IMG/VR virus record: IMGVR_UViG_3300028840_002524 | Coordinates: 52,196 to 116,195 of that record | Source of the DNA: a virus | DNA: 64,000 nucleotides | Direction: 5' to 3' (one strand) | Part shown: piece after piece, positions 443 through 60,432 of the stretch | How the letters are laid out: each line of letters begins with the position of its first letter | Numbering within the stretch: position 1 is the stretch's first letter | Program-made: the position numbers and the translations under genes | Notes under the pieces: model-generated | Database searches by the model: none | Told to the model about the DNA's origin: nothing | Seen by the model: the letters and a program-made list of their open reading frames with translations, nothing else

Positions 443-1212
443 ACCTGTGCAACGGCCTGTGGGCCGCCATCGTTGTTGACACCAAGGACCCCCTGGGGTC
501 CAGGCGCGTGAAGGTCCGCGTGCCCGAGCTCCACGGGACCGTCCAGGATCAGACGATCAAGGACGTAAACCTGCCGTGGGCGCGGCCGTGCTTCCCGTAC
601 GGCGGCCCGACATACGGCGATGATTTCGTTCCGGGCCTCCAAGCGCAGGTGTGGGTGGCATTCGAGCACGGGGACCCGCAATCCCCTATATGGGTCGGAT
701 GCGTCTACGCCAGCGGCGAGGGGCCTGCCCCGGAGTTCGCCCAGGTCGGCCCGGCGAACCAGCAGCCCAAGGGGAACTACCGCCGCACAGAGGGCGGGTG
801 GTTCGTGGGCGTGATCGAGAGCGCCTCGACCAAGGTGTACCGGGCCAAGTCGCCCACGGGGATGCTCGTGGAGGTCGATGAGTCGGCCAAGAAGGTGACC
901 GTCCAGACGGCCACGGGGTTCAAGCTGGAACTCGATGAGAGTTCGAGTACCGTGGTCCTCCAGGACGCGACCGGGAACAAGATTGAACTCAAGACCACCG
1001 ACGGCGGTATCACCCACGCGGTCAAGGCCCTCCTCGAAGCGCCATTGATCGCCCTTGGGCAGGCAGCAGCCGAACCCGTCGTGAAGGGGACCAGTTTTCT
1101 CGCGGCGTTCATCGGGCATACGCACCCGGGCGTAACGTCGGGACCGGCCTCGACAGGCCCGGCCACCCCACTACCGCCCTCGATCCTTTCCTCTAAGGTG
1201 TTTACGGAATGA
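439..1212 (+). CDS. Baseplate spike protein (gp5/gpV/VgrG-like OB fold plus beta-helix)
   Basis: Likely start MNLCNGLW at 439. Motifs 'VVDTKDPLGSRRVKVRVP', 'PWARP' and 'VWVAFEHGDPQSPIWVG', plus the C-terminal HxH tip motif 'GHTHPG'. Confidence 0.85.
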   Translation: MNLCNGLWAAIVVDTKDPLGSRRVKVRVPELHGTVQDQTIKDVNLPWARPCFPYGGPTYGDDFVPGLQAQVWVAFEHGDPQSPIWVGCVYASGEGPAPEFAQVGPANQQPKGNYRRTEGGWFVGVIESASTKVYRAKSPTGMLVEVDESAKKVTVQTATGFKLELDESSSTVVLQDATGNKIELKTTDGGITHAVKALLEAPLIALGQAAAEPVVKGTSFLAAFIGHTHPGVTSGPASTGPATPLPPSILSSKVFTE

Positions 1213-13577: not shown

Positions 13578-13606
13578 TTGACAATCCGGACGTGATAGCG
13601 TATGAT
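13578..13606 (+). promoter_or_regulatory. Sigma70-like promoter
   Basis: TTGACA-17 bp-TATGAT; the ATG at 13613 lies at the expected +1, implying a leaderless mRNA. Confidence 0.75.
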
Positions 13607-13612
13607 ACGACC

Positions 13613-14446
13613 ATGAAATACACCGTATTGCGGTACGAATACGACGCCGACGGGGAGACAAAGCGCAAGACGGCCATCTTGCCCGGGTTTTTTGGGCCGG
13701 GGAGTCCGCTCCTCGCCGCGTACCTGAAACGGGTACACCCCGAATACATTCCCCGGAGGCCGTCGGTGCGCCTCATGCAGTTCGACGACACGGTGCCGTC
13801 GTTCTATGACCTATTCGGGTACTGGAGTGCGTGCTCGGACTGCTCCCTCGGCGAGACGGCCAACAAGCGGGCCTTTTACAGGGGTCCCCTCACGGCCGAG
13901 ATCATGTGCATCGGAGAGGCCCCTGGCGCCGAAGAGGACCGCGTGGGGCTACCGTTCATTGGGAGGGCCGGTGACTTCCTCAACTGGCTCCTGGAACAGG
14001 CTGGAATCGACCCTGACGCCGTTTTGATCGCCAACACGACCCTCTGCCGCCCCACAGGGCCCTCGGGGAAGGACCGGCCTCCTACGCCCACCGAGGTGGG
14101 GGCCTGCATCAAACACCTTCGGGACCTCCTGCACGTCGTAAAGCCGAGGGTCGTGGTCCTCATGGGCGCAACGGCCCGGGATGCGTTCACGCGCTCGAAA
14201 ATCGACTGGGAAACGCGGTTCAGCCTGGACATCCCCACCACATTCGGCCTCATCCATCACCCCGCGTGGTTCCTGCGGAGCGGCGGGAAGGAGGCCAAGG
14301 AGGTTTCCAAGGCGACCGCGCTCCTGTATTCCCTCAAGGTGGCGGCCGAGCGAGGCCGTAAGCGCCTACGGCCCGAGGTTGAATGGGAGAACCTGTTGTG
14401 GCCCTCTGTCGAGCGGGCCATCAAGCACTGCAAGGGGGATCAATGA
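13613..14446 (+). CDS. Uracil-DNA glycosylase family 4 (Fe-S)
   Basis: 'CSDCSL...IGEAPGAEED..GLPFIGRAG..L...NTTLCRP...RPPTPTE...C...HPAW'. Confidence 0.9.
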   Translation: MKYTVLRYEYDADGETKRKTAILPGFFGPGSPLLAAYLKRVHPEYIPRRPSVRLMQFDDTVPSFYDLFGYWSACSDCSLGETANKRAFYRGPLTAEIMCIGEAPGAEEDRVGLPFIGRAGDFLNWLLEQAGIDPDAVLIANTTLCRPTGPSGKDRPPTPTEVGACIKHLRDLLHVVKPRVVVLMGATARDAFTRSKIDWETRFSLDIPTTFGLIHHPAWFLRSGGKEAKEVSKATALLYSLKVAAERGRKRLRPEVEWENLLWPSVERAIKHCKGDQ

Positions 14447-22236: not shown

Positions 22237-23244
22237 ATGGATCGAGAGAGCATCCTCAAGTTGGCCGGTCTCCTCGGGATCAAGGCAGCGAGGGGGCGTG
22301 GAGCTAACATTCTGTTACAGTGCCCCTTCGCCGAAATCACCGGAGGCCACGCGAGCGCCGACGATGCGCGGCCGTCCTTCTCGGTGCTCGTGGACGATGC
22401 AGGTCCCTCGGCCTGCAACTGTTTCGGCTGCGGAACCCGGGGAACCCTTGTCTCGGTGCTGGCGAAAGCGGCACGGAAGCACGACGGGTTCGATGAGGCC
22501 CTCGCGTTTGCCAAGCGCGTCGAGAAGTACGACTTGGAGCGCGGCCTGGAGCGTGCCCTCCACCACGGCCCGAGAATTAGGGAGCGCGAGGGGGAGGGGG
22601 CGGCGTTATCGCGTACGCTCGCCCGATTCGTCCGGGCCTGCCAAGTCCACGTGCCCGGCTACGCCCTGGAGCGGGGCCTCACGCGCCACGAGATCGAGCG
22701 GTGGAACGTCGGCCTCGACGTGTTCGAGTACAGGGTGACCTTCCCGGTGTGGGACCGCGATGGCTCTCTCGTTGGGGTAATGGGGCGCACGGTCGTGGAG
22801 GGGGTCGAGCCGAAATACCTCGCCTACCACCAGTTCTCCACCGGTGAGCATTTCTACGGGGAGCACGATCTCGACATGACCGTGGATGAGGCCGTGATCG
22901 TCGAGGGCGGCCTCGACACCATCGTGACGCGCCGATTCCACCCCAACGCCCTCGGACTCCTCGGCCTGCGGCTCACCCCGGAGAAGCGAAAGAAGCTCAA
23001 GAAGTGGTTTTCCTCCGTGACGCTCCTGCTCGATTCCGACGCGGCCGGGACGGTCCAGGCCCTCTCCGAGGACGTGTTCACGATTCGGATGGGTCTCTGG
23101 CTGTCCAAGGTCATGCGGCTGTACGTCGCTATGCTCCCGTCCGGTGAAGATCCTGCGAGCGCCCCGGATGCCGTCCCGACGGCCTTAAAAAATCGAGTGC
23201 TTTGGGACTCTCTGGGACTCGACAAGTCGAAACTGATATGCTAA
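22237..23244 (+). CDS. dnaG: DNA primase (DnaG-type, zinc-binding domain plus TOPRIM)
   Basis: 'CPF...H...PSF...CFGC', 'PKYL', 'VEGGLD', 'LDSDAAG', 'DP'. Confidence 0.88.
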   Translation: MDRESILKLAGLLGIKAARGRGANILLQCPFAEITGGHASADDARPSFSVLVDDAGPSACNCFGCGTRGTLVSVLAKAARKHDGFDEALAFAKRVEKYDLERGLERALHHGPRIREREGEGAALSRTLARFVRACQVHVPGYALERGLTRHEIERWNVGLDVFEYRVTFPVWDRDGSLVGVMGRTVVEGVEPKYLAYHQFSTGEHFYGEHDLDMTVDEAVIVEGGLDTIVTRRFHPNALGLLGLRLTPEKRKKLKKWFSSVTLLLDSDAAGTVQALSEDVFTIRMGLWLSKVMRLYVAMLPSGEDPASAPDAVPTALKNRVLWDSLGLDKSKLIC

Positions 23245-23293
23245 GATATGAATCATTGGAAGCCTCATAGTAGGTTCAGAGCCTCATAGTAGG
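23219..23293 (+). promoter_or_regulatory. Promoter and tandem 14-bp direct repeat upstream of SSB
   Basis: TCGACA-17-TAAGAT; AGCCTCATAGTAGG at 23261-23274 and 23280-23293. Confidence 0.55.
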
Positions 23294-23315
23294 CACAAGT
23301 TTGGAGGACACAGGT

Positions 23316-24212
23316 ATGGGATTCGCAACACGCGGGATGGGGGAGGCGAACAACGTCCCTTCCTCATCGAGGGTCAAGCCGCAGTTCGAAAAGCGTCTCT
23401 TCCTTCGCCCTGGGGATGAGATGGACATCGTTCTGCTGGACGACAATTCATTCAACATCTGGGAACACGGGATGTTCCTCAAGGGCGACAAGCAGGCGTC
23501 CAAGATCAAGGTCACCTGCCCCGACGGCACGGCCGACGGCGACCCCAAGGAGTGCCGAATCTGCAACGCCATGATTCGCCACGACCTCATCGGCCGCAAC
23601 TGGAGAGGGTTCCTCACCGTCGTGGACCTGTCCAAGCGCACCTGGAGAGGCAAGACGTACGTTGACGTGAAGAAGCTTCTCCCGCTGGACAAAAAGACGG
23701 CCATGATCCTGGAGCGCAAGCGGGACAAGCGCGGATCCCTGGTGGGGGCGCAGATGCACCTCTACCGCACGGACGGGAACTCCAGCTCCGTGGGCGACGA
23801 CTGGGAGCTCGTGGACATCGAGGACCCCAAGAAGCGGTTCAAGAACTCCCCCCAGATCGAGCGTACCATCGACTGGGCCAAGAAGAAGGACGGCACGATC
23901 CTGACGCGCAGTCAGGCCCTCGCCGTGTTCTGCTCCCCTTACGACTACAACGAGGTTCTCGCCCCCGATGCCAAGAAGGTCCGGTACTTCCTGGCCTACA
24001 TGGGAATCGACGATAGCGTCCAGGGCGGCGAGGAGGAGCGCGAGGAGGAGAACAACACCGTCGAGTACGGCAATCCCGAAACGCCCCCGGACGATGGAGT
24101 CGAGGAGGGGGGAGAAGAACGCCAGCGGGCGCCTGCCAAGAAAGCCGGGAAGAAAAAGGGTGTCAAGAAGAAGGGCGTCAAGAAGAAGGGTGTCAAGAAA
24201 AAGGGACGCTGA
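23316..24212 (+). CDS. Single-stranded DNA-binding protein (T4 gp32-like)
   Basis: RBS GGAGG; 'H...C...C..C' metal site; OB-like core; acidic stretch followed by a KKGV tail; located between primase and polymerase. Confidence 0.7.
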   Translation: MGFATRGMGEANNVPSSSRVKPQFEKRLFLRPGDEMDIVLLDDNSFNIWEHGMFLKGDKQASKIKVTCPDGTADGDPKECRICNAMIRHDLIGRNWRGFLTVVDLSKRTWRGKTYVDVKKLLPLDKKTAMILERKRDKRGSLVGAQMHLYRTDGNSSSVGDDWELVDIEDPKKRFKNSPQIERTIDWAKKKDGTILTRSQALAVFCSPYDYNEVLAPDAKKVRYFLAYMGIDDSVQGGEEEREEENNTVEYGNPETPPDDGVEEGGEERQRAPAKKAGKKKGVKKKGVKKKGVKKKGR

Positions 24213-24248
24213 TCAACGCTGCGGTCCCCCTCACGGGGGGCCGCGTAG

Positions 24249-24384
24249 CGCCCGGTAGCTCAGCGGAAGAGCACCCTCTCGCCTTGGACGATGCGCCGTA
24301 CTTGGCGGGGCAGCCGTGGAGGTCGTGCACACCGAAGCGGTCGAGCGAGGTCGGTCAGGGGTTCGAATCCTCTCCGGGCGTCCA
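24249..24384 (+). ncRNA. tRNA-like RNA with an expanded (about 78 nt) anticodon domain
   Basis: Acceptor CGCCCGG/CCGGGCG plus T-CCA; D arm GCTC-AGCGGAA-GAGC; T arm AGGGG-TTCGAAT-CCTCT. Confidence 0.7.
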
Positions 24385-24385
24385 G

Positions 24386-26596
24386 ATGGACGATATAGCA
24401 GAGAAAATCCTGAGTTCGCCGTGGGTCGCGGTCGATACCGAGACCGACGACGATGAGCTCATCCCGGCCTGCAAGAAGTCCCTCTATGGGGTTTCGCTCG
24501 CGTGGGGTAACCCCGAGCACCCTGTCGGGGACTATTGGTCCTTTCAGGAGGACGCGCAGGCGTTCAAGACGTTCAAGAAGCGCATCCTCGGACCGCTCTT
24601 CGAGCGAGAGGATGTGAATCTCGCGTGGTGGAACTACAAGTTTGACGCGCAGGTGCTCGGGGCCCGGGGCCTCCAGGCCAAGGGAAAGATCCACGACGGG
24701 ATGCTCCTCTCGTACCTGATCGACGAAAACAACCGGCACGCCCTCAAGGCATGCGCGAAGCGGAGCCTCGGCGTTACCACGGCCCTCACATACAAGGAGT
24801 CACAGCGAGAGATCGAGGCCATCTGGAATCGCGGCCAGAAGGTCATCAAGAAGATGATCGCCACGGCGTGGAACCTCTACAGGGACCACAGAAAGACCTC
24901 GCAGGTGATCGAGGCGTTCGTGGACCCGAAGTGGCCGCTGGCGAAGCGGGCAGCATTCATGCAGCCGCCGGGGCTCAAGAAAGCGGAGGTGACGCCCCTC
25001 ATAGATAAGTTTGTACGGCCGAAGGTCGAGGTGAAAGCCGACATTGATCGGAAGAACCTCTTCGAGACGTACGCCACCCATGACGCGATATGGACCCTCC
25101 AGCTCGTGAACCTGTACCTCAAGGAGGTGGAAGAGCTGGGGCTCCTGGACGTGTTCTTCAACCTCGAAGTGCCCGTCGTGGAGGCCGTCGTTGACATAGA
25201 AACCCGGGGCGTTCGCATGGACGTGGACATCCTCCGGGACCTCAAGCGCATGTACGGCGAGGAGATCGCCAAGATCAGGTCCTCAATCGAGAAGGAATGG
25301 GGCGAATGGTTCAACCCCGGCTCCCCTGATCAGCTCCGTCAGATTTTCTGGGGGTACTACGGTATCGAGCCCCCAGATTGGGCGATCAACAAGAAGAACA
25401 AGAAGAAGGGGAACACGGACCCCATCAAATACGCCTCGACGGACAAGCGGGTCCTCGAATGGCTCGAAGAGAACCACGACATCCCGCTCATCGGACAGGT
25501 GACCCGGCTTCGGAAGCTGGAGAAGATCAAAGGCACGTACATCGACAACCTCCTGGAGCGGGCCGAGGCCGACGGAGAGCACCGTATCCACTGCTCGTTC
25601 AACCCGACCGGAACGGTCAATGATCGGTGGTCCTCGAACAACCCGAACCTCCAGAACCAACCCCGGCCGGGAACGACCGAGGGCGTGATCAGCACGGTTT
25701 TCGATCCGCAGACAGGAGAGGAGAGAAAGGTCCCGACGATCCGCCGGGCCTACATCCCGAGGGACGGGTACAAGTTCATCAATGCCGATTTCTCCCAGAT
25801 CGAGCTCCGCTTCCTGGCCCACATCACGCAGGACCCGGCGCTCCTCAAGGCGTACCGGACATGGATGTGCCACACGTGCGGCGCCGAGGGGGAGACGGAT
25901 ATATCCATGCACCACTGCCCACACTGTTGGGCGGATGAGGTGGAGGCCAAGGGCCACGAGTCCATCGAAGAGGGCTTTGTCCTGGGCGAGGACATCCATT
26001 GGCTCACCGCCGTGGCGACTGGACTCGTGGACACCTACGGCCCTGTGGAGGGGCGCTACAAAGCGAAAAACGTCAATTTCGGACTGATCTACGGGATGTT
26101 CCCGAAGCTCCTCGCGTCCATGATCGGGGTGTCCAAGGAAGAGGCCGAAGAGGTTCACGCGAGGTTCTTCCTCAAGTACCAGAAGGTGCGCAATTTCCAC
26201 CACTGGGTGCGCAACACGCTGGACGACGAGGGCCGCTTCAAACTCTATAACGGCCGCTGGCGGAATTTCACCAAGGAGCGCAACCTCTGGCACGCGGGCA
26301 GGATGGAGGAGTGGCTGTGGCACGGGGTCGTGCGAGAGGCCACGAACTCGATCATCCAGGGCGGCGCTGCCCAGCTCATGAAGATGGTGGTGCGCGACCT
26401 GAGCCGGGACTTCCGCACAGGCGACTACGGAGACACCGGAATCGTCCTCCAGGTGCACGACGAAATCCTCGTGGAGTACCCGGAGGAGCGGGAAGAGCAG
26501 GTTAAAAAGCAGATCGTGGAGCGGATGGAGCGCGTAGCGAACATCGGTGTCCCGATCATCACGGACCCGGAGATCAAGACTGCATGGGCAGCGTAA
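24386..26596 (+). CDS. polA: DNA polymerase family A (3'-5' exonuclease plus polymerase)
   Basis: ExoI 'VDTET', 'NPNLQN', motif A 'ADFSQIELR', motif B 'KNVNFGLIYG', motif C 'QVHDE'. Start placed at MDDIAEK because the upstream in-frame segment is the tRNA-like element. Confidence 0.93.
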   Translation: MDDIAEKILSSPWVAVDTETDDDELIPACKKSLYGVSLAWGNPEHPVGDYWSFQEDAQAFKTFKKRILGPLFEREDVNLAWWNYKFDAQVLGARGLQAKGKIHDGMLLSYLIDENNRHALKACAKRSLGVTTALTYKESQREIEAIWNRGQKVIKKMIATAWNLYRDHRKTSQVIEAFVDPKWPLAKRAAFMQPPGLKKAEVTPLIDKFVRPKVEVKADIDRKNLFETYATHDAIWTLQLVNLYLKEVEELGLLDVFFNLEVPVVEAVVDIETRGVRMDVDILRDLKRMYGEEIAKIRSSIEKEWGEWFNPGSPDQLRQIFWGYYGIEPPDWAINKKNKKKGNTDPIKYASTDKRVLEWLEENHDIPLIGQVTRLRKLEKIKGTYIDNLLERAEADGEHRIHCSFNPTGTVNDRWSSNNPNLQNQPRPGTTEGVISTVFDPQTGEERKVPTIRRAYIPRDGYKFINADFSQIELRFLAHITQDPALLKAYRTWMCHTCGAEGETDISMHHCPHCWADEVEAKGHESIEEGFVLGEDIHWLTAVATGLVDTYGPVEGRYKAKNVNFGLIYGMFPKLLASMIGVSKEEAEEVHARFFLKYQKVRNFHHWVRNTLDDEGRFKLYNGRWRNFTKERNLWHAGRMEEWLWHGVVREATNSIIQGGAAQLMKMVVRDLSRDFRTGDYGDTGIVLQVHDEILVEYPEEREEQVKKQIVERMERVANIGVPIITDPEIKTAWAA

Positions 26597-29263: not shown

Positions 29264-30742
29264 ATGGCGAAAGCAAAGCGTGACCTGGGGGGCTCCCCCG
29301 AGAAAGGCCGTGAGCGCATCCGCGTGGCCTCCGAGATCATCAACAAGAAGTACGGCACCCACACGGCCCTCCCTTTGAACGTGGCGGCCGTCGCCGACGT
29401 GGAGCGCCTCCCTTTCGGCGTGCTGTCCCTGGACTGGAAAACGCGGGGAGGGATCGTCGTGGGCCGGGTGAACCGGCTGTGGGGGAAGAAGAGCACCCTC
29501 AAGACAACCCTGTGCCTCCGGGCCGTCGCGCAGGCGCAGCGGCACTGCCGCCACTGCAAGGCCCCCATCGTGCAGGACCCGGTGACCGAGAAGCGGAATT
29601 GCCGGTGCCCGAACCCGAGATTCACCATGGCGAACCCGGAGCAGTTCAGCCTGCTCACCCAGGAGCAAACGATCCAGACGCGCTACGGCATCCTCCCGGG
29701 CCCGGCCACGCTGAAAAATCCCTGGGTCACGGTCAAGAACAGTAGCGGAAAGAACATCAAGGTGCTGTTCGAGGAGACGGACCGGAACGAGCCGTGGCGC
29801 TGCATTTTCATCGACACCGAGCGCACCATCGACAAGAAGTGGGCCCAGAACAACGGCGTGGACACCTCCCTCGTGGCCCTCGTGGGCGGCAAGTGGGCCG
29901 AGATGGTCCTGGACACTACCGAGGAGCTCATCCTCACGGGCGACTTCGACCTCATCGTGATCGACTCTCTTGCCATGCTCACCCCCGAGGACGAGGTGAG
30001 CAAGTCCCACCGGGAGAACCCCAAGGTGGCCGGGCAGGCCGGGGTCATGACGCGGGCAGTCAAGAAGTGGCTCAGCGCCATGAACGAAGAGGGGCTCATG
30101 AATCGCTACGCCCCCACCATCCTGTGCACCGATCAGGTACGCATGAAGGGGATCGGCTACGGGCAGCACGCCCATCTCGCGCCAGCGGCGTCGAACGCCA
30201 TCGACCACTCCCTCTCCCTCGACATCGGGATGCGGGCCGGGGGCTACGAGTTCGACGGGGACGTTGCCAAGTACGGGACCTTCGACTACACGGTGGACAA
30301 GAACAAGGCCGGTGGATCTCCCAAGGTGAAAGGGTCCTTCCGATTCTGGCTCAAGCCCACACGCGGCCGGGCCGTCGGTGACGTGGAGGACATGAAGGTC
30401 GTGATGGCGGAGGCCCGCAGCCTCGGGATCATCGAGGACGGCAAGGGCAAGTACACCCTCCTGTCCGAGTACCTGGAGGAGGGGGAAGAGACCTTCAAGA
30501 CCCTCAAGGCCCTCACGGCATTCCTCGAAAATAACCCGACCGTCTACGCCGATGTGCGTGCCCGGACCCTCCAATGCCTCATCATGAAGGATGAGGAGGG
30601 CGAGATCGTGCTCGGTTCAGAGGCCGAGAAGAAGGTCGAAGAGAAGCCTGTTGAGGCTGTCGAGAAGCCGAAGCGCAAGCAGGGCAAGAAAAAGGGTGTC
30701 AAGAAGAGCGAGAACCCTCTCACCCAGAAGTTCAAGGTGTGA
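29264..30742 (+). CDS. recA: RecA/UvsX-like recombinase with a Cys-rich insertion
   Basis: 'G.LSLD...GGI..GR...G..STLKTT', 'FIDTE', 'IVIDSLA'; about 90-aa insertion with CRHC/CRC after Walker A. Confidence 0.85.
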   Translation: MAKAKRDLGGSPEKGRERIRVASEIINKKYGTHTALPLNVAAVADVERLPFGVLSLDWKTRGGIVVGRVNRLWGKKSTLKTTLCLRAVAQAQRHCRHCKAPIVQDPVTEKRNCRCPNPRFTMANPEQFSLLTQEQTIQTRYGILPGPATLKNPWVTVKNSSGKNIKVLFEETDRNEPWRCIFIDTERTIDKKWAQNNGVDTSLVALVGGKWAEMVLDTTEELILTGDFDLIVIDSLAMLTPEDEVSKSHRENPKVAGQAGVMTRAVKKWLSAMNEEGLMNRYAPTILCTDQVRMKGIGYGQHAHLAPAASNAIDHSLSLDIGMRAGGYEFDGDVAKYGTFDYTVDKNKAGGSPKVKGSFRFWLKPTRGRAVGDVEDMKVVMAEARSLGIIEDGKGKYTLLSEYLEEGEETFKTLKALTAFLENNPTVYADVRARTLQCLIMKDEEGEIVLGSEAEKKVEEKPVEAVEKPKRKQGKKKGVKKSENPLTQKFKV

Positions 30743-45853: not shown

Positions 45854-45866
45854 TGCCTATTTTTCC

Positions 45867-45895
45867 TTGGAAAGCAGGTCGTGATAGGGTATAAT
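45867..45895 (+). promoter_or_regulatory. Sigma70-like promoter
   Basis: TTGGAA-17-TATAAT with CGTGATAG in the spacer. Confidence 0.6.
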
Positions 45896-45899
45896 CGGC

Positions 45900-47951
45900 A
45901 TGTCGTGTAGGAGAAAACACGTGCCATCGCCGAAACAGGTAGCCGGTCTCCATCGTCGTTTGTCCCTCCTTCAAGCCGAGGGTATTTCCGCTGCACCCAC
46001 CCTCGAAGGGCCCGAAATCCCGTTCAAGAAATCGGGTACCTTCCGCATCTATTCCGCCGAGCACACGCTCCCGTTCGAGGGGACGGCTGCGGCTCTCCGG
46101 AAGTGGATCGAGGGGAGGGGCCTCAAGTCCTTTGTGGTCCAGCGCATCCCCGAGCCCCTTGAGGGCGCAATCGAATACGTCCTCGTGAGCACCCGAGACC
46201 CGCGAACAGGAGCAGACGTTCCTGTGGGCGAGTTCTATGCGGACAACGAGTGGTATCCCCTCTCCGGGTACACAGGCAGTGAGGAGCACCTCGCCGACCT
46301 TTGCAAGGGAGTGGAGCGCGTTCTCAAGGACGTGTGCCTCGTGGAGGCGGTACGGTACGCCGATGATGAACCCTTCTGCGTGCTGTCCGTGTTCCCCGCC
46401 GTCCGGAGCGTCGGCGCGGCGCTGGCGTTCGTTCGGGATTTCGCAGACGAGGAAATACTCACCCGGGAGGAGGCCATCCTCCGGATTTCCCCGGCCGACA
46501 TGGCCGCCCTGGAGACGCAGACCCTCAGCGCCCCGGAGGGAGAGGCCATCGCAAAGGGCTCCCCGGCCGTGCCCGGCGTCGCGTACGCCCCGGCGGCGTG
46601 GTCGGCTCAGGAGGCGATGGAGCGGTTCGCCGTGACAGGTGATCGTTCCGTTCTGGCCGTGAAGATGACAGGCCCGGAGGATGTGGCGGCTCTCCAGTTC
46701 TGCTCCGGTATCGTGACCGAGACCGGCGGCCTCACATCTCACGCGGCCGTGGTGGCCCGGGGGATGGGCCTGCCGTGCATCGTTTCGGCCGACAGGATCG
46801 GACAGCGGCGCGGTGAGGAGATCACGCTCTCCATTGACGGGTCCACCGGCCTCGTGTTCGAGGGGAAAGCCCCCGTATCCGAGGAGACCGGTACGCTCGT
46901 ACTCGATGAGGTGCTCCAGTGGGTGCCTCCCGCCATGTCCGTCTATGCCAATGTGGACACCCCCGACGGGGCCAAGGACGCCGTAGGCGCGTACGGCGCC
47001 GCAGGGGTGGGGCTCTGCCGCACCGAGCACCAGTTCTTCGGGGCCGACCGCATCGAGCCGTTCAGGCGCATGCTCATCGCGGACACGGACGCCCTGCGCA
47101 AGGCCGCCCTCATCCGACTCCTGGAGTTCCAGCGGGATGACTTCAAGGGCATTTTCGACGCGGCCGGTGGGCGCCCGGTAACCATCCGCCTCCTGGACGC
47201 GCCCCTCCACGAGTTTTGGAGCGAGGACGCCGCCCAGGCCCTCGGGGTGTCGAAAACCGCCGTGAAGCGGTACGTCGAAACCCTCCACGAGTCGAACCCT
47301 ATGCTCGGTCACCGGGGATGCCGGTACGGGATCACGGCCCCGGAGGTGTACGCCATGCAGGTGCAGGCGGTCGCTGAGGCGGCGCTGGCGGTGCACGCGG
47401 AGGTGGCGACGGCCCCGCGCATCATGATCCCTCTCGTGGCCTCTGTGCGCGAATTCATCGCCGTACGCTCCCTCGTGGAGGACATCCTCACCAAGGTGAT
47501 GGGTTCGGAGGGCAAAAACATCCCCATTGGCACCATGATCGAGACCCCACGGGCCTGCATCACGGCCGATGAGATCGCCCGGGAGGCCGATTTCCTCTCC
47601 TTCGGGACCAATGACCTCACGCAGATGGTGTGGGGCTACTCTCGGGATGACGTGGAAAAGTGGATGCCCAAGTACCTGGACCTCCGGGTCCTTCAAGCCA
47701 ATCCGTTCGCCACGCTCGACGTTCGAGGGGTGGGGCGTCTTATTCGGCTCGGCGTAGAGCTGGCCCGAGCGGTGCGGCCCACCATCGAGATCGGCGTCTG
47801 CGGGGAACACGCGGCAGACCCGCGTTCCATCTCCGCGTTCGCCCATCTCGGGGTGGACTATATCTCCTGCTCCGTTTCAAGGCTCAAGATGGCCCGGTTG
47901 GCGGCCGCCCAGGTGGCCGTACGAGGGAGGGAAACTTGCATATCCGTTTAA
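45900..47951 (+). CDS. Pyruvate phosphate dikinase-derived PEP-utilising protein lacking an intact nucleotide-binding domain
   Basis: Phospho-His motif 'GGLTSHAAVVARGMG', 'GLCRTEH', 'NPMLGHRGCR', 'SFGTNDLTQ', 'GVCGEH'; N-terminal region short and degenerate; start uncertain. Confidence 0.85.
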   Translation: MSCRRKHVPSPKQVAGLHRRLSLLQAEGISAAPTLEGPEIPFKKSGTFRIYSAEHTLPFEGTAAALRKWIEGRGLKSFVVQRIPEPLEGAIEYVLVSTRDPRTGADVPVGEFYADNEWYPLSGYTGSEEHLADLCKGVERVLKDVCLVEAVRYADDEPFCVLSVFPAVRSVGAALAFVRDFADEEILTREEAILRISPADMAALETQTLSAPEGEAIAKGSPAVPGVAYAPAAWSAQEAMERFAVTGDRSVLAVKMTGPEDVAALQFCSGIVTETGGLTSHAAVVARGMGLPCIVSADRIGQRRGEEITLSIDGSTGLVFEGKAPVSEETGTLVLDEVLQWVPPAMSVYANVDTPDGAKDAVGAYGAAGVGLCRTEHQFFGADRIEPFRRMLIADTDALRKAALIRLLEFQRDDFKGIFDAAGGRPVTIRLLDAPLHEFWSEDAAQALGVSKTAVKRYVETLHESNPMLGHRGCRYGITAPEVYAMQVQAVAEAALAVHAEVATAPRIMIPLVASVREFIAVRSLVEDILTKVMGSEGKNIPIGTMIETPRACITADEIAREADFLSFGTNDLTQMVWGYSRDDVEKWMPKYLDLRVLQANPFATLDVRGVGRLIRLGVELARAVRPTIEIGVCGEHAADPRSISAFAHLGVDYISCSVSRLKMARLAAAQVAVRGRETCISV

Positions 47952-52166: not shown

Positions 52167-53444
52167 ATGAGCCGCCTCGGAAACCTGACCCCCACGGAAC
52201 TCACCAAGAGAGCCAAGGCCGAAGCGAAGCGCACGGGCGAGTCGCTGTCGGCCACGAAAGCGCGGATGGCCCACGAGCTCTGCGCGGCTTCCAAGACCCA
52301 CGCCCATGAGGCCGAGTTTTTCGTCCTCTCCTACGGCATGGGAGTGGACAGCACCGCGATCCTCCTCCGGTACCTGGAGGACGGCTTCGAGGCCCACGGG
52401 ATCGACCCCAAGCGCCTCACGGTGCTCACGGCCATGACCGGCAACGAGTTCCCCGAGCTGAAAGCCCTGGTCGAGGAGCACATCCTCCCTCGGCTCCGCG
52501 AGCACGGGGTCCGCTACGTGCAAGTGGCACGCGAGACCGCGAAGGAGACCTGCGCGGTGCTGAGCGACACCACGACCCCCAACACCCTCCACCTGAGCGG
52601 GGCTTTCACCCTCCGGGACGAATGCACCGCGACGGCCACCATCCCCCAGAGCGGCGGCTGCCGCAAGTGCAGCATCAAGAGCAAGGGCTGGCCCCTGGAC
52701 ATGATGATCGAGCGGCTCACCGGCGGCCGCCCCTACCTCCACGTGATCGGCTTCGAGAGCGAGGAGACGGGCCGGGCGGTGAAGGACGCCTACTGCGGCA
52801 CCGACGCCCGCATACCGGCCTACCCCCTCCTCGACTGGGGATGGAACCGGGCCAAGTGCCTGGAATACATCAAGGAGCGGACCGGGGCCGACTGGACCAA
52901 GAGCGCCTGCTACTTCTGCCCCTTCTTCGGCCAAGGCGCGGAAAAAGCCCTCCTCGAAGAGCGGTGGACGACCCACCCGACCCTGGGCGGCGACGCCCTC
53001 TACCTGGAACACACCACCTTGGCCCTGAACCCCCGGCAAACCCTCTTCGGCAAGAAGTCGGCCCGGGAGTTCGCCGAGAAGCGCGGCCTGGACGCGGCGC
53101 TGGCGGCCTTTGAAGCGCAAAAGAGCAACGCCGAGTGGGTGGTCTACCGCCTGCGGCGCATCTGGAAGAACGGACGGGCAACCAGAGGGGTGGACCCCGA
53201 AAAGCGCGGCCTGAGCGAGGCTGAGGCCCTGGAGACCCTCCGGGAGATGGCGGCGGCCGAGGGCGCCCGGGTCGAGACCGACGCGGCCGGGATAACCAGG
53301 GCGATGCACAGCGGCAAGCCCCTGAGCGGGACCGGCACCGAACACTTCCTCGCCGCGAGCCCGGTGAGCATGACCAAGGCCAAGCACGGCCGCCTGAGCC
53401 CCGAGAAGTTCGAGGCCCGCTGGAAAGAGGCCACGGCCGGGTAA
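52167..53444 (+). CDS. PAPS reductase-like (PP-loop/adenine nucleotide alpha-hydrolase) protein
   Basis: PP-loop 'LSYGMGVDST', 'TGNE.PE', 'RKCSIKSK', 'IGF..EE', 'YPL.DWGW.R..C', 'KSACYFCPF'. Confidence 0.75.
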   Translation: MSRLGNLTPTELTKRAKAEAKRTGESLSATKARMAHELCAASKTHAHEAEFFVLSYGMGVDSTAILLRYLEDGFEAHGIDPKRLTVLTAMTGNEFPELKALVEEHILPRLREHGVRYVQVARETAKETCAVLSDTTTPNTLHLSGAFTLRDECTATATIPQSGGCRKCSIKSKGWPLDMMIERLTGGRPYLHVIGFESEETGRAVKDAYCGTDARIPAYPLLDWGWNRAKCLEYIKERTGADWTKSACYFCPFFGQGAEKALLEERWTTHPTLGGDALYLEHTTLALNPRQTLFGKKSAREFAEKRGLDAALAAFEAQKSNAEWVVYRLRRIWKNGRATRGVDPEKRGLSEAEALETLREMAAAEGARVETDAAGITRAMHSGKPLSGTGTEHFLAASPVSMTKAKHGRLSPEKFEARWKEATAG

Positions 53445-58654: not shown

Positions 58655-58700
58655 ATAGCGGTTGAAAAGCGGATCATGACACCCTATAATATAAATAGAT
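58651..58700 (+). promoter_or_regulatory. Repeated strong promoter, copy 7 (diverged)
   Basis: TTGAAA(58662)-17-TATAAT, then ATAAATAGAT. Confidence 0.8.
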
Positions 58701-58731
58701 GAGGAACGCAACACAACCGACTGGAGGAACC

Positions 58732-60340: not shown

Positions 60341-60432
60341 GCCGGTGTGGCGCAATAGGCAGACGCAGCCCCTTAGAAGGGTGGGTTCCCCCTCGGAATC
60401 ACATGCGGGTTCGAGTCCCGCCACCGGCACCA
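60341..60432 (+). tRNA. tRNA-Leu (anticodon TAG), 4-bp anticodon stem
   Basis: Acceptor GCCGGTG/CACCGGC plus A-CCA; Leu-type D arm; loop CT-TAG-AA; long variable arm GGTTCC/GGAATC; T arm GCGGG-TTCGAGT-CCCGC. Confidence 0.85.

Follow-up and report, generated by a model that had tools for sequence, protein, structure and literature searches.

A conserved tRNA-shaped element with an oversized anticodon region directly precedes the DNA polymerase gene of a phage

In one phage genome, the start codon of polA, the gene of a family A DNA polymerase, lies a single nucleotide behind the CCA end of a sequence that is shaped like a tRNA and is far too long in the place of the anticodon arm. What is this element, and how is the polymerase behind it expressed? 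The locus belongs to an IMG/VR virus record of 116 kb (IMGVR_UViG_3300028840_002524), estimated to be 85% complete; the window analyzed here is the stretch of 64,000 nucleotides at positions 52,196 to 116,195 of that record, and coordinates are those of the window. A reading made from its letters without database searches (the sequence-only reading) had described a tRNA shell with an oversized anticodon region abutting polA, and our analysis confirms this observation. Very probably the element is a real, selected tRNA mimic that does not decode. The best-supported mechanism, which as a whole chain is tentative and falls a little short of probable, would be excision of the element from a longer transcript, yielding a nearly leaderless polA message.

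The tRNA-shaped element and the polA start codon

The element occupies positions 24249–24384 (136 nt) on the plus strand and has all the parts of a tRNA except the anticodon arm. The 5′ strand of the acceptor stem (tRNA positions 1–7, 24249–24255) forms seven of seven possible pairs with the 3′ strand at 24374–24380, and is followed by U8 and A9. The D arm (24258–24272) consists of a 4-bp stem and a 7-nt loop with G18 G19, and the T arm (24357–24373) of a 5-bp stem, including one G-U pair, and the loop TTCGAAT; both arms were identified by reading the sequence and by ARAGORN. A G15:C48-type pair is also present. The acceptor 3′ strand is followed by U73 at 24381 and by an encoded CCA at 24382–24384, and a single G at 24385 separates the CCA from the ATG of polA at 24386. 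The acceptor stem, D arm, T arm and CCA are thus each found where the sequence-only reading had placed them. Its estimate that some 78 nt replace the 17-nt anticodon arm also holds: the region between the D and T stems (24273–24356) has 84 nt, compared to 23 nt in a normal tRNA. The features recognized by tRNA-processing enzymes are kept, namely the acceptor stem, the D/T elbow (G18 G19, TTC and G15:C48), the discriminator and the CCA.

Such a shell is not the product of chance. We applied a strict test demanding the T-loop motif, 5/5 pairs in the T stem, 7/7 in the acceptor stem, 4/4 in the D stem and GG in the D loop, with 45–220 nt permitted between the two halves of the shell, on both strands. 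The real 116-kb genome contains one match, which is the element, and 200 dinucleotide shuffles contain none. The element is missed by ARAGORN in its default mode. When introns are permitted, the program reports a tRNA-Ser(cga) with a 61-nt intron, but the call alone is weak evidence, because the same mode made 9 calls in 30 dinucleotide-shuffled genomes (0.3 false calls per genome). An Rfam search of positions 24100–24500 returned nothing significant with E up to 10, and no match to RF00005. The sequence-only reading had pointed to intron-mode ARAGORN and Rfam as ways of checking the element; the former thus recognizes a tRNA, weakly, and the latter does not.

The element is conserved in a related phage. 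Among 5.8 billion proteins, this PolA has few close relatives, with identities of 72%, 71%, 48%, 47%, 43% and 33%, and we compared the contigs of two of them, L001 (72%) and L020 (47%). L001 is a complete 131-kb phage with terminal repeats. Its layout consists of the same upstream gene, 7 nt, a 134-nt element of the same build including the CCA, then GC and the ATG. The two elements are 69% identical (75% in the shell and 64% in the insert). The flanking coding DNA is 60–80% identical, and therefore the stems were kept while the sequence drifted at an ordinary rate. Three acceptor pairs (2:71, 3:70 and 4:69) have both sides changed in L001 with the pairing kept. In the T stem, pair 49:65 is A-U in the window and G-C in L001, and pair 51:63 is G-U and A-U, respectively. 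In total, four two-sided compensatory changes, three in the acceptor stem and one in the T stem, distinguish the two copies, so that the stem covariation which the sequence-only reading had suggested looking for upstream of polA is found in the shell. The D stem does not differ between the two copies. At 1:72, the window has C-G where L001 has an A-C mismatch, and the discriminator is U73 and G73, respectively; CCA is present in both.

A covariance model built from the two orthologues finds the element once in each genome. A genome-wide search with RF00005 finds only a tRNA-Leu in each; in the window this is tRNA-Leu(TAG) at 60341–60432. Both phages thus carry exactly one canonical tRNA plus the element. 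In L020, the same two genes flank only a long hairpin, with no tRNA-like sequence between them. It follows that either the sub-lineage of the window phage acquired the element or the other lineage lost it.

The comparison with L001 also decides whether the segment is coding sequence. The sequence-only reading had allowed that PolA might start at the upstream TTG at 24284, with the segment conserved as protein. The frame in the window is open from this TTG into polA, producing an open reading frame (ORF) of 770 amino acids. In L001, by contrast, a TAG within the D arm closes the frame, and no in-frame ATG, GTG, TTG, CTG, ATT or ATC occurs between this stop and the ATG. Translated in this frame, the two elements yield unrelated peptides. 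Their common T-arm sequence is read in different frames, because the ATG is separated from the element by 1 nt in the window but by 2 nt in L001. The segment is not conserved as protein, and an N-terminal extension of PolA, refuted by the L001 stop, the missing start and the unrelated translations, is hardly credible. On this comparison, the open frame from 24284 is an accident of the window copy. Seven PolA homologues align at the methionine of 24386; two of them have short extra N-terminal stretches from gene calling, and all starts fall within 12 residues. Downstream of 24386, the next 60 codons of the window offer no in-frame start, and the D-x-E motif of the exonuclease already occupies residues 17–19. 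The alignments place the start of PolA at 24386.

As the sequence-only reading had stated, this ATG stands 1 nt behind the CCA without a Shine-Dalgarno site. The 20 nt before it, formed by the acceptor 3′ strand, N73 and CCA, contain none, while many other genes of the phage have GGAGG-like sites. Translational coupling is unlikely, because the upstream gene stops 173 nt before polA. The 7 nt between the upstream stop and the element in L001 leave no room for a promoter, and the only nearby promoter-like site in the window (23219–23247) lies before the upstream gene; for both reasons, the element probably lies within a polycistronic RNA. Elsewhere in the window there are three sigma70-type promoters placed for leaderless mRNAs, at 13578–13615, 45866–45902 and 58664–58701. 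In all three, 17 nt separate a TTGACA-like −35 box from a TATAAT-like −10 box, and the distance from the end of the −10 box to the ATG (at 13613, 45900 and 58699) is 6, 4 and 8 nt, respectively. The genes behind them encode a 277-amino-acid ORF, a 683-amino-acid phosphoenolpyruvate (PEP)-utilizing enzyme and a 321-amino-acid primase-like protein. Judging from the position of these promoters, the phage uses leaderless translation elsewhere in its genome.

The insert and the question of decoding

In place of the anticodon loop, the element has a domain of ∼70 nt: a short stem with two hairpins around an invariant 13-nt junction. The inserts of the window (78 nt) and L001 (75 nt) align over their full length with one 3-nt gap. 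The minimum-free-energy fold of the L001 insert is a three-way junction of −52.3 kcal/mol (z = −2.1 compared to shuffles), with an outer 6-bp stem in the place of the anticodon stem, a first hairpin (H1) closed by CGCC/GGCG, a 5-nt junction and a second hairpin (H2) of 12 bp. The corresponding parts of the window insert are N26, the outer stem (24275–24278 with 24347–24350), H1 (24280–24307), the junction, H2 (24313–24341) and a 5–6-nt equivalent of the variable loop. The same junction fold is suboptimal in the window, at −24 to −26 kcal/mol against a minimum of −31 kcal/mol. Its outer stem has 4 bp, the base of H1 has the same 4 bp under a different upper stem, and H2 keeps 8 of the 12 pairs, with a 3×3 internal loop of purines. 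The long irregular hairpin drawn for this region in the sequence-only reading corresponds roughly to the minimum-free-energy fold of the window, and obtains no support from its energy (z = +1.05).

The invariant core at 24304–24316 (plus strand) runs from the 3′ strand of the H1 base through the 5-nt junction into the beginning of H2. It is identical in the window and L001, while the upper stems of H1 and H2 differ. The core occurs once in the genome, and no complement of it that could serve for seed pairing with a phage target is present elsewhere in the phage genome. By eye, the apical loops of H1 and H2 (24291–24296 and 24324–24330 in the window) are mutually complementary in both phages, with 5 pairs including one G-U in the window and four G-C pairs in L001. 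This suggests a loop–loop contact between H1 and H2, although two sequences compared by eye make it only a lead.

Searches for further copies returned little beyond the two orthologues. A megablast search of the locus against cultured phages gave no match, and a metagenome scan for relatives recovered only the contig of L001. The 13-nt core combined with the T loop was found in 15 viral contigs, all of which except L001 are chance matches in GC-rich coding DNA. The loop motif of the second hairpin coincides with tRNA shells only in the window, L001 and a third contig, L135. A scan for the D arm together with part of the core recovered mostly normal tRNAs; one of its matches, a tRNA-Arg with the motif in its 44-nt variable arm (L215), is probably a coincidence. 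The covariance model of the window and L001 elements (R1) assigns ∼53 bits to the L135 element and to an element of Streptomyces phage Vash, and 52–57 bits to ordinary tRNAs of 74–76 nt. Because ordinary tRNAs score equally, R1 supports likeness of the shell and not homology of the insert. We claim no family beyond the two orthologues, to which L135 would be linked only through a shared 14-nt string.

Could the insert interrupt a tRNA that decodes once it has been removed? We enumerated the single excisions after which a 5-bp stem adjoins position 26, its 7-nt loop contains U33 and purine 37, and the variable loop measures 4–6 nt. The window allows one solution, with the anticodon CGA and a 61-nt excision at 31/32 or 32/33, and no solution exists in L001 or in two other tRNA-shaped elements examined. 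An interrupted tRNA, for example a Pro(UGG) or CGA reader, would lose its insert as a protein-dependent intron, through a bulge-helix-bulge or by a small ribozyme. Such a gene would be consistent with the intron-mode ARAGORN calls in the window, L001 and L135, with the CT-NNN that by eye follows the conserved CGCC in all three (TGG, GGG and CAT), and with the published tRNA genes of Lak megaphages that have unexplained inserts (PMC6784885). However, the anticodons called by ARAGORN disagree (Ser-cga in the window, Arg-gcg and Arg-tcg in the others), the mode has the false-call rate given above, and a canonical arm after a single excision arises only in the window copy. No Rfam intron or ribozyme family matches with E up to 10, and 78 nt is far below the size of group I introns, which usually exceed 200 nt. 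Genes for RtcB, a DRB0094-type RNA ligase or a CCA-adding enzyme are absent from both phages, and a splicing endonuclease is not expected, because the promoters and Shine-Dalgarno sites are bacterial. A permissive scan for 3-4-3 bulge-helix-bulge motifs yields many matches in GC-rich RNA, with none at homologous positions in the window and L001. The intron-containing tRNA put forward in the sequence-only reading is not supported, and an interrupted decoding tRNA of any kind is very improbable. Its Pro(UGG)-like arm does not fare better: the L001 counterpart is GGG, also Pro, but the inner-stem reading makes the anticodon stem too long, with 2–5 extra stacked pairs.

Compared with canonical decoding tRNAs, the element has the acceptor stem, D arm, TTC T arm and discriminator base; it lacks a 5-bp anticodon stem with a 7-nt loop (U33, purine 37) between position 26 and the variable loop, and does not reach the gathering threshold of RF00005. 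It is not a transfer-messenger RNA (tmRNA) either: the tmRNA mode of ARAGORN is negative, pair 3:70 is C-G instead of G3:U70, and the insert has no stop codon. The model of YrlA, a Y RNA-like family (RF02553), gives 14.8 bits against a gathering score of 69, with the matched stretch extending into polA. We conclude that the element RNA does not decode. A decoy for anticodon nucleases, another proposal of the sequence-only reading, is not favoured, because neither hairpin loop of the insert resembles an anticodon loop (there is no U33-type loop). The element does agree with a processing signal of the t-element type: it is a non-canonical cloverleaf, its T arm is conserved, it has an acceptor-like stem, and it is embedded in a longer transcript.

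Possible roles of the element in polA expression

In the mechanism that we favour, one message would span the upstream gene, which encodes a protein of 303 amino acids, the element and polA. Host RNase P would cleave this message at 24248/24249 and leave the upstream part ending in a hairpin at 24221–24244. A 3′ endonuclease would cleave at or just after the CCA; candidates are RNase E and an RNase Z of the kind that cuts behind CCA. The products would be a stable free tRNA-shaped RNA of 136 nt and a polA message with a leader of 1 nt (G-AUG), or of 2 nt in L001 (GC-AUG), which would be translated without a Shine-Dalgarno site as a leaderless mRNA. The GC-rich hairpin at 24221–24244 (plus strand), noted in the sequence-only reading, is indeed present 4 nt upstream of the element. 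It has a 10-bp stem and the loop TCAC, without a T run, according to the sequence and to the structure line of a partial RsmY match. It is absent in L001, and L020 has a longer hairpin at the same place. Possibly it protects the 3′ end of the upstream message after an RNase P cut 4 nt downstream.

The individual steps of this chain have precedents. A cut at the CCA is feasible, because suitable RNase Z and RNase E activities are known: Thermotoga RNase Z cuts just after an encoded CCA, and RNase E can directly produce the CCA end (PMC7479834). In E. coli, engineered tRNA scaffolds whose anticodon arm is replaced by a large insert undergo precise processing and accumulate (PMC3753655). In plant mitochondria, non-canonical tRNA-like sequences termed t-elements define the 5′ and 3′ ends of mRNAs (PMC1920247). 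A processing signal that releases a nearly leaderless polA mRNA, as the sequence-only reading had proposed, remains the best fit to the indirect evidence from covariation, the start codon, the missing Shine-Dalgarno site, the packing of the locus and the promoters.

Several points weigh against this mechanism. In many bacteria, an encoded CCA blocks RNase Z, and the 3′ ends are then made by exonucleases, which would destroy an intact downstream message. A leader of even one nucleotide may be costly: leaderless translation is reduced ∼2-fold per added 5′ base in Caulobacter, and a single leader base is said to inhibit it in E. coli (PMC8459731). The spacer differs between the two phages (G and GC). 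Among 24 families of tRNA shells with inserts of 60–90 nt, three abut a start codon, compared to 22 of 165 control positions, which is no enrichment. The fold of the insert is based on one pairwise comparison between two orthologues, and the window insert is no more stable than its shuffles. Finally, a plain tRNA or a minihelix would suffice as a processing signal, and processing leaves the conserved cargo domain unexplained.

The cargo could be explained if the element acts in trans as a tRNA mimic and its adjacency to polA is incidental. The cargo would then bind or sequester a tRNA-binding enzyme of the host or a defence nuclease directed at tRNA, or the RNA would carry an amino acid for a non-ribosomal purpose, with polA translated in some other way. 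Consistent with this, the stems around the 13-nt junction core vary and the core itself does not, each phage has a single canonical tRNA besides the element, shells with 60–90-nt inserts are common in viral contigs and mostly do not abut a gene, and the L135 element, which lies in a 29-tRNA array, shares the 14-nt string of the second hairpin with L001. On the other hand, the core has no complement in the phage genome, neither hairpin loop is like an anticodon loop, and the differences in discriminator and acceptor stem between the orthologues argue against one fixed aminoacylation identity. Translation of polA would also remain unexplained, with no Shine-Dalgarno site and a helix ending 1–5 nt before the ATG. 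A role in trans without a role at polA thus appears rather unlikely, but trans action is compatible with excision and does not exclude it. The element might in fact serve both purposes. Its excision would be needed before the polymerase can be translated, tying polymerase synthesis to host tRNA processing, and the freed, stable tRNA-scaffolded RNA would act in trans, through its two-hairpin domain, on a host tRNA-binding protein or defence system. We consider this combination unlikely; if true, the engineered tRNA scaffold would have a counterpart in nature, and mitochondrial punctuation one in bacterial viruses.

Two further explanations require no excision. The element may stay on the polA mRNA and control its translation in cis, its fold hiding or presenting the start codon, so that unfolding, a binding factor or ribosome docking is needed. 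The position of the ATG, 1–2 nt after the CCA and 5–6 nt after a GC-rich 7-bp helix in both phages and without a Shine-Dalgarno site, would fit such control. However, a full shell with CCA and intact elbow far exceeds the needs of a sequestering hairpin and, being a substrate of RNase P, is unlikely to remain uncut. The literature searched contains no known bacterial precedent, and control in cis seems improbable. Alternatively, the element could be the inactive remnant of a tRNA gene that was disrupted by an insertion and is now drifting. The unremarkable energy of the window insert is in line with decay, as are the loss in the window of 4 of the 12 H2 pairs kept in L001, an identity to L001 similar to that of the flanking coding DNA, and the absence of the element in L020. 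Decay does not account for the four two-sided changes that keep the acceptor and T stems, nor for the retention of all D-stem pairs, G18 G19, the T loop and the CCA at 69% identity, the invariant 13-nt core, or the same position and single copy in both phages. This makes a drifting remnant quite improbable.

Known systems, similar shells and the surrounding genome

The favoured excision mechanism has a parallel in the punctuation of animal mitochondrial transcripts by tRNAs. As described by Ojala, Montoya and Attardi in 1981, excision by RNase P and RNase Z reportedly sets the ends of mRNAs that have little or no leader. That system employs decoding tRNAs across a whole genome, whereas here a single non-decoding mimic stands before one phage gene. 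YrlA RNAs resemble the element in being non-coding RNAs with a tRNA-like module, and some members are encoded by phages. Their free ends are in the Ro-binding stem, and the acceptor-like stem is closed by a loop; in the phage element, by contrast, the free ends form the acceptor stem with CCA.

The t-elements of plant mitochondria (Forner et al. 2007, PMC1920247) are likewise non-canonical tRNA-like sequences with a GGTTCRANYCC T arm and an acceptor-like stem inside longer transcripts. Their ends adjoin mRNA ends and are cut by RNase P and RNase Z; once released, a t-element can be stable (PMC1920247). They are organellar, with ends mapped by experiment, whereas the phage element is known from sequence. 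They also lack a large conserved cargo, an encoded CCA and a flush placement before a start codon, all three of which the phage element has. Engineered tRNA scaffolds (Ponchon and Dardel, in PMC3753655) have the same architecture, with the acceptor, D and T parts kept and the anticodon stem-loop replaced by a structured insert, and in E. coli these chimeras are precisely processed and protected from nucleases (PMC3753655). The scaffolds are man-made, while the phage element is natural, conserved in two phages and placed in an operon directly before a gene. The 'enigmatic introns' of Lak megaphages (Devoto et al. 2019, PMC6784885) are similar in that the genes are too long for bacterial tRNA finders, are called only in intron mode and belong to no known intron class. 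The Lak inserts lie in anticodon loops that are otherwise normal and whose anticodon can be assigned, and there are alleles without the insert (PMC6784885). In contrast, no consistent anticodon arm can be restored in the phage element, and L020 lacks the whole shell, not only the insert.

To estimate how common such shells are, we searched viral contigs for the pattern of a common D arm and a T loop 60–90 nt apart. The pattern matched 92 times, with an intact acceptor stem in 71 cases that form 24 families, which suggests that tRNA shells with large inserts are frequent in phages. The inserts of the other shells are unrelated to the window insert, and the covariance model scores these shells no higher than ordinary tRNAs. 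If the proposed roles are true, phages would employ tRNA mimics in two ways absent from the literature searched: to carry structured RNAs, and to make leaderless messages for essential genes through punctuation, a mechanism so far known from mitochondria. Standard tRNA finders and Rfam miss such genes, and gene callers extend the neighbouring protein, as in the 770-amino-acid ORF from the TTG, or leave a gap.

Individual shells differ considerably in build. The L135 element (1015–1149, minus strand, corresponding to G002:C1:10453-10587) is 135 nt long, lacks the CCA and lies between tRNA-Gln and tRNA-Thr in the 29-tRNA array of a GC-rich phage contig. The cultured Streptomyces phage Vash (MK450421.1) has an unannotated tRNA-shaped element of ∼90 nt at 30535–30624 (L201, 1498–1587), between genes 36 and 37, in which 22 nt with a GNRA-capped mini-hairpin replace the anticodon loop. 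A copy in a Streptomyces sp. genome (L238, 1063–1153) shows a compensatory change of the outer stem from CCCC/GGGG to CCCG/CGGG, and a change of the tetraloop from GUAA to GCAA. In L144 (∼540–660, plus strand), a tRNA shell with a 70-nt insert is followed, one base after the discriminator, by the ATG of a 493-amino-acid ORF. A very abundant tRNA-shaped gene of 110 nt is nearly identical in L099 and 37 further loci, mostly from sample 3300045988, on viral contigs of 38–78 kb; its CCA is encoded, its anticodon stem bears a 26-nt loop, and its variable region has ∼20 nt. Three other loci (L102, L145 and L172) have an anticodon loop with an insert of ∼45 nt that contains a T-arm-like hairpin, flanked by CT and CATAA or by CT and CCAAA. 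The acceptor stem of L165 (1706–1850, plus strand) is extended to ∼15 bp without a CCA, a closed-hairpin topology unlike that of the studied element. Finally, a metagenome-assembled genome of Terriglobia (L236, 5606–5679, plus strand) encodes a 74-nt class I tRNA with a short variable loop and the anticodon GCU, usually that of the long-armed tRNA-Ser; in the shell, this tRNA is very similar to the window element.

The element is part of a replication module with the gene order DnaB-type helicase, RNase H, DnaG-type primase, the 303-amino-acid protein, the element, polA and SF2 helicase. RecA is encoded further along, and a T4-type portal gene further downstream. The polA gene (24386–26596, plus strand) encodes 736 amino acids of a family A DNA polymerase with a 3′–5′ exonuclease domain, as assigned by PF01612 and PF00476 on homologues. 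The ORF of the 303-amino-acid protein (23301–24212, plus strand) ends in a Lys-rich C-terminal tail. The protein matches no Pfam family, and its sole match is PHROG 17226, itself of unknown function; orthologues of its gene are found 5′ of the element in L001 and 5′ of the hairpin in L020. The sigma70-type promoters, the Shine-Dalgarno sites and the T4-type portal point to a bacterial host. Homologues of a pyruvate phosphate dikinase-like protein of the phage are scattered over phyla, weakly favouring Planctomycetota among others, and permit no conclusion about the host. This protein (683 amino acids, 45900–47951) has the mobile and PEP-binding domains and lacks the N-terminal nucleotide-binding domain PF01326 of its cellular homologues, which are 870–1000 amino acids long. 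The short form is common to two close phage relatives.

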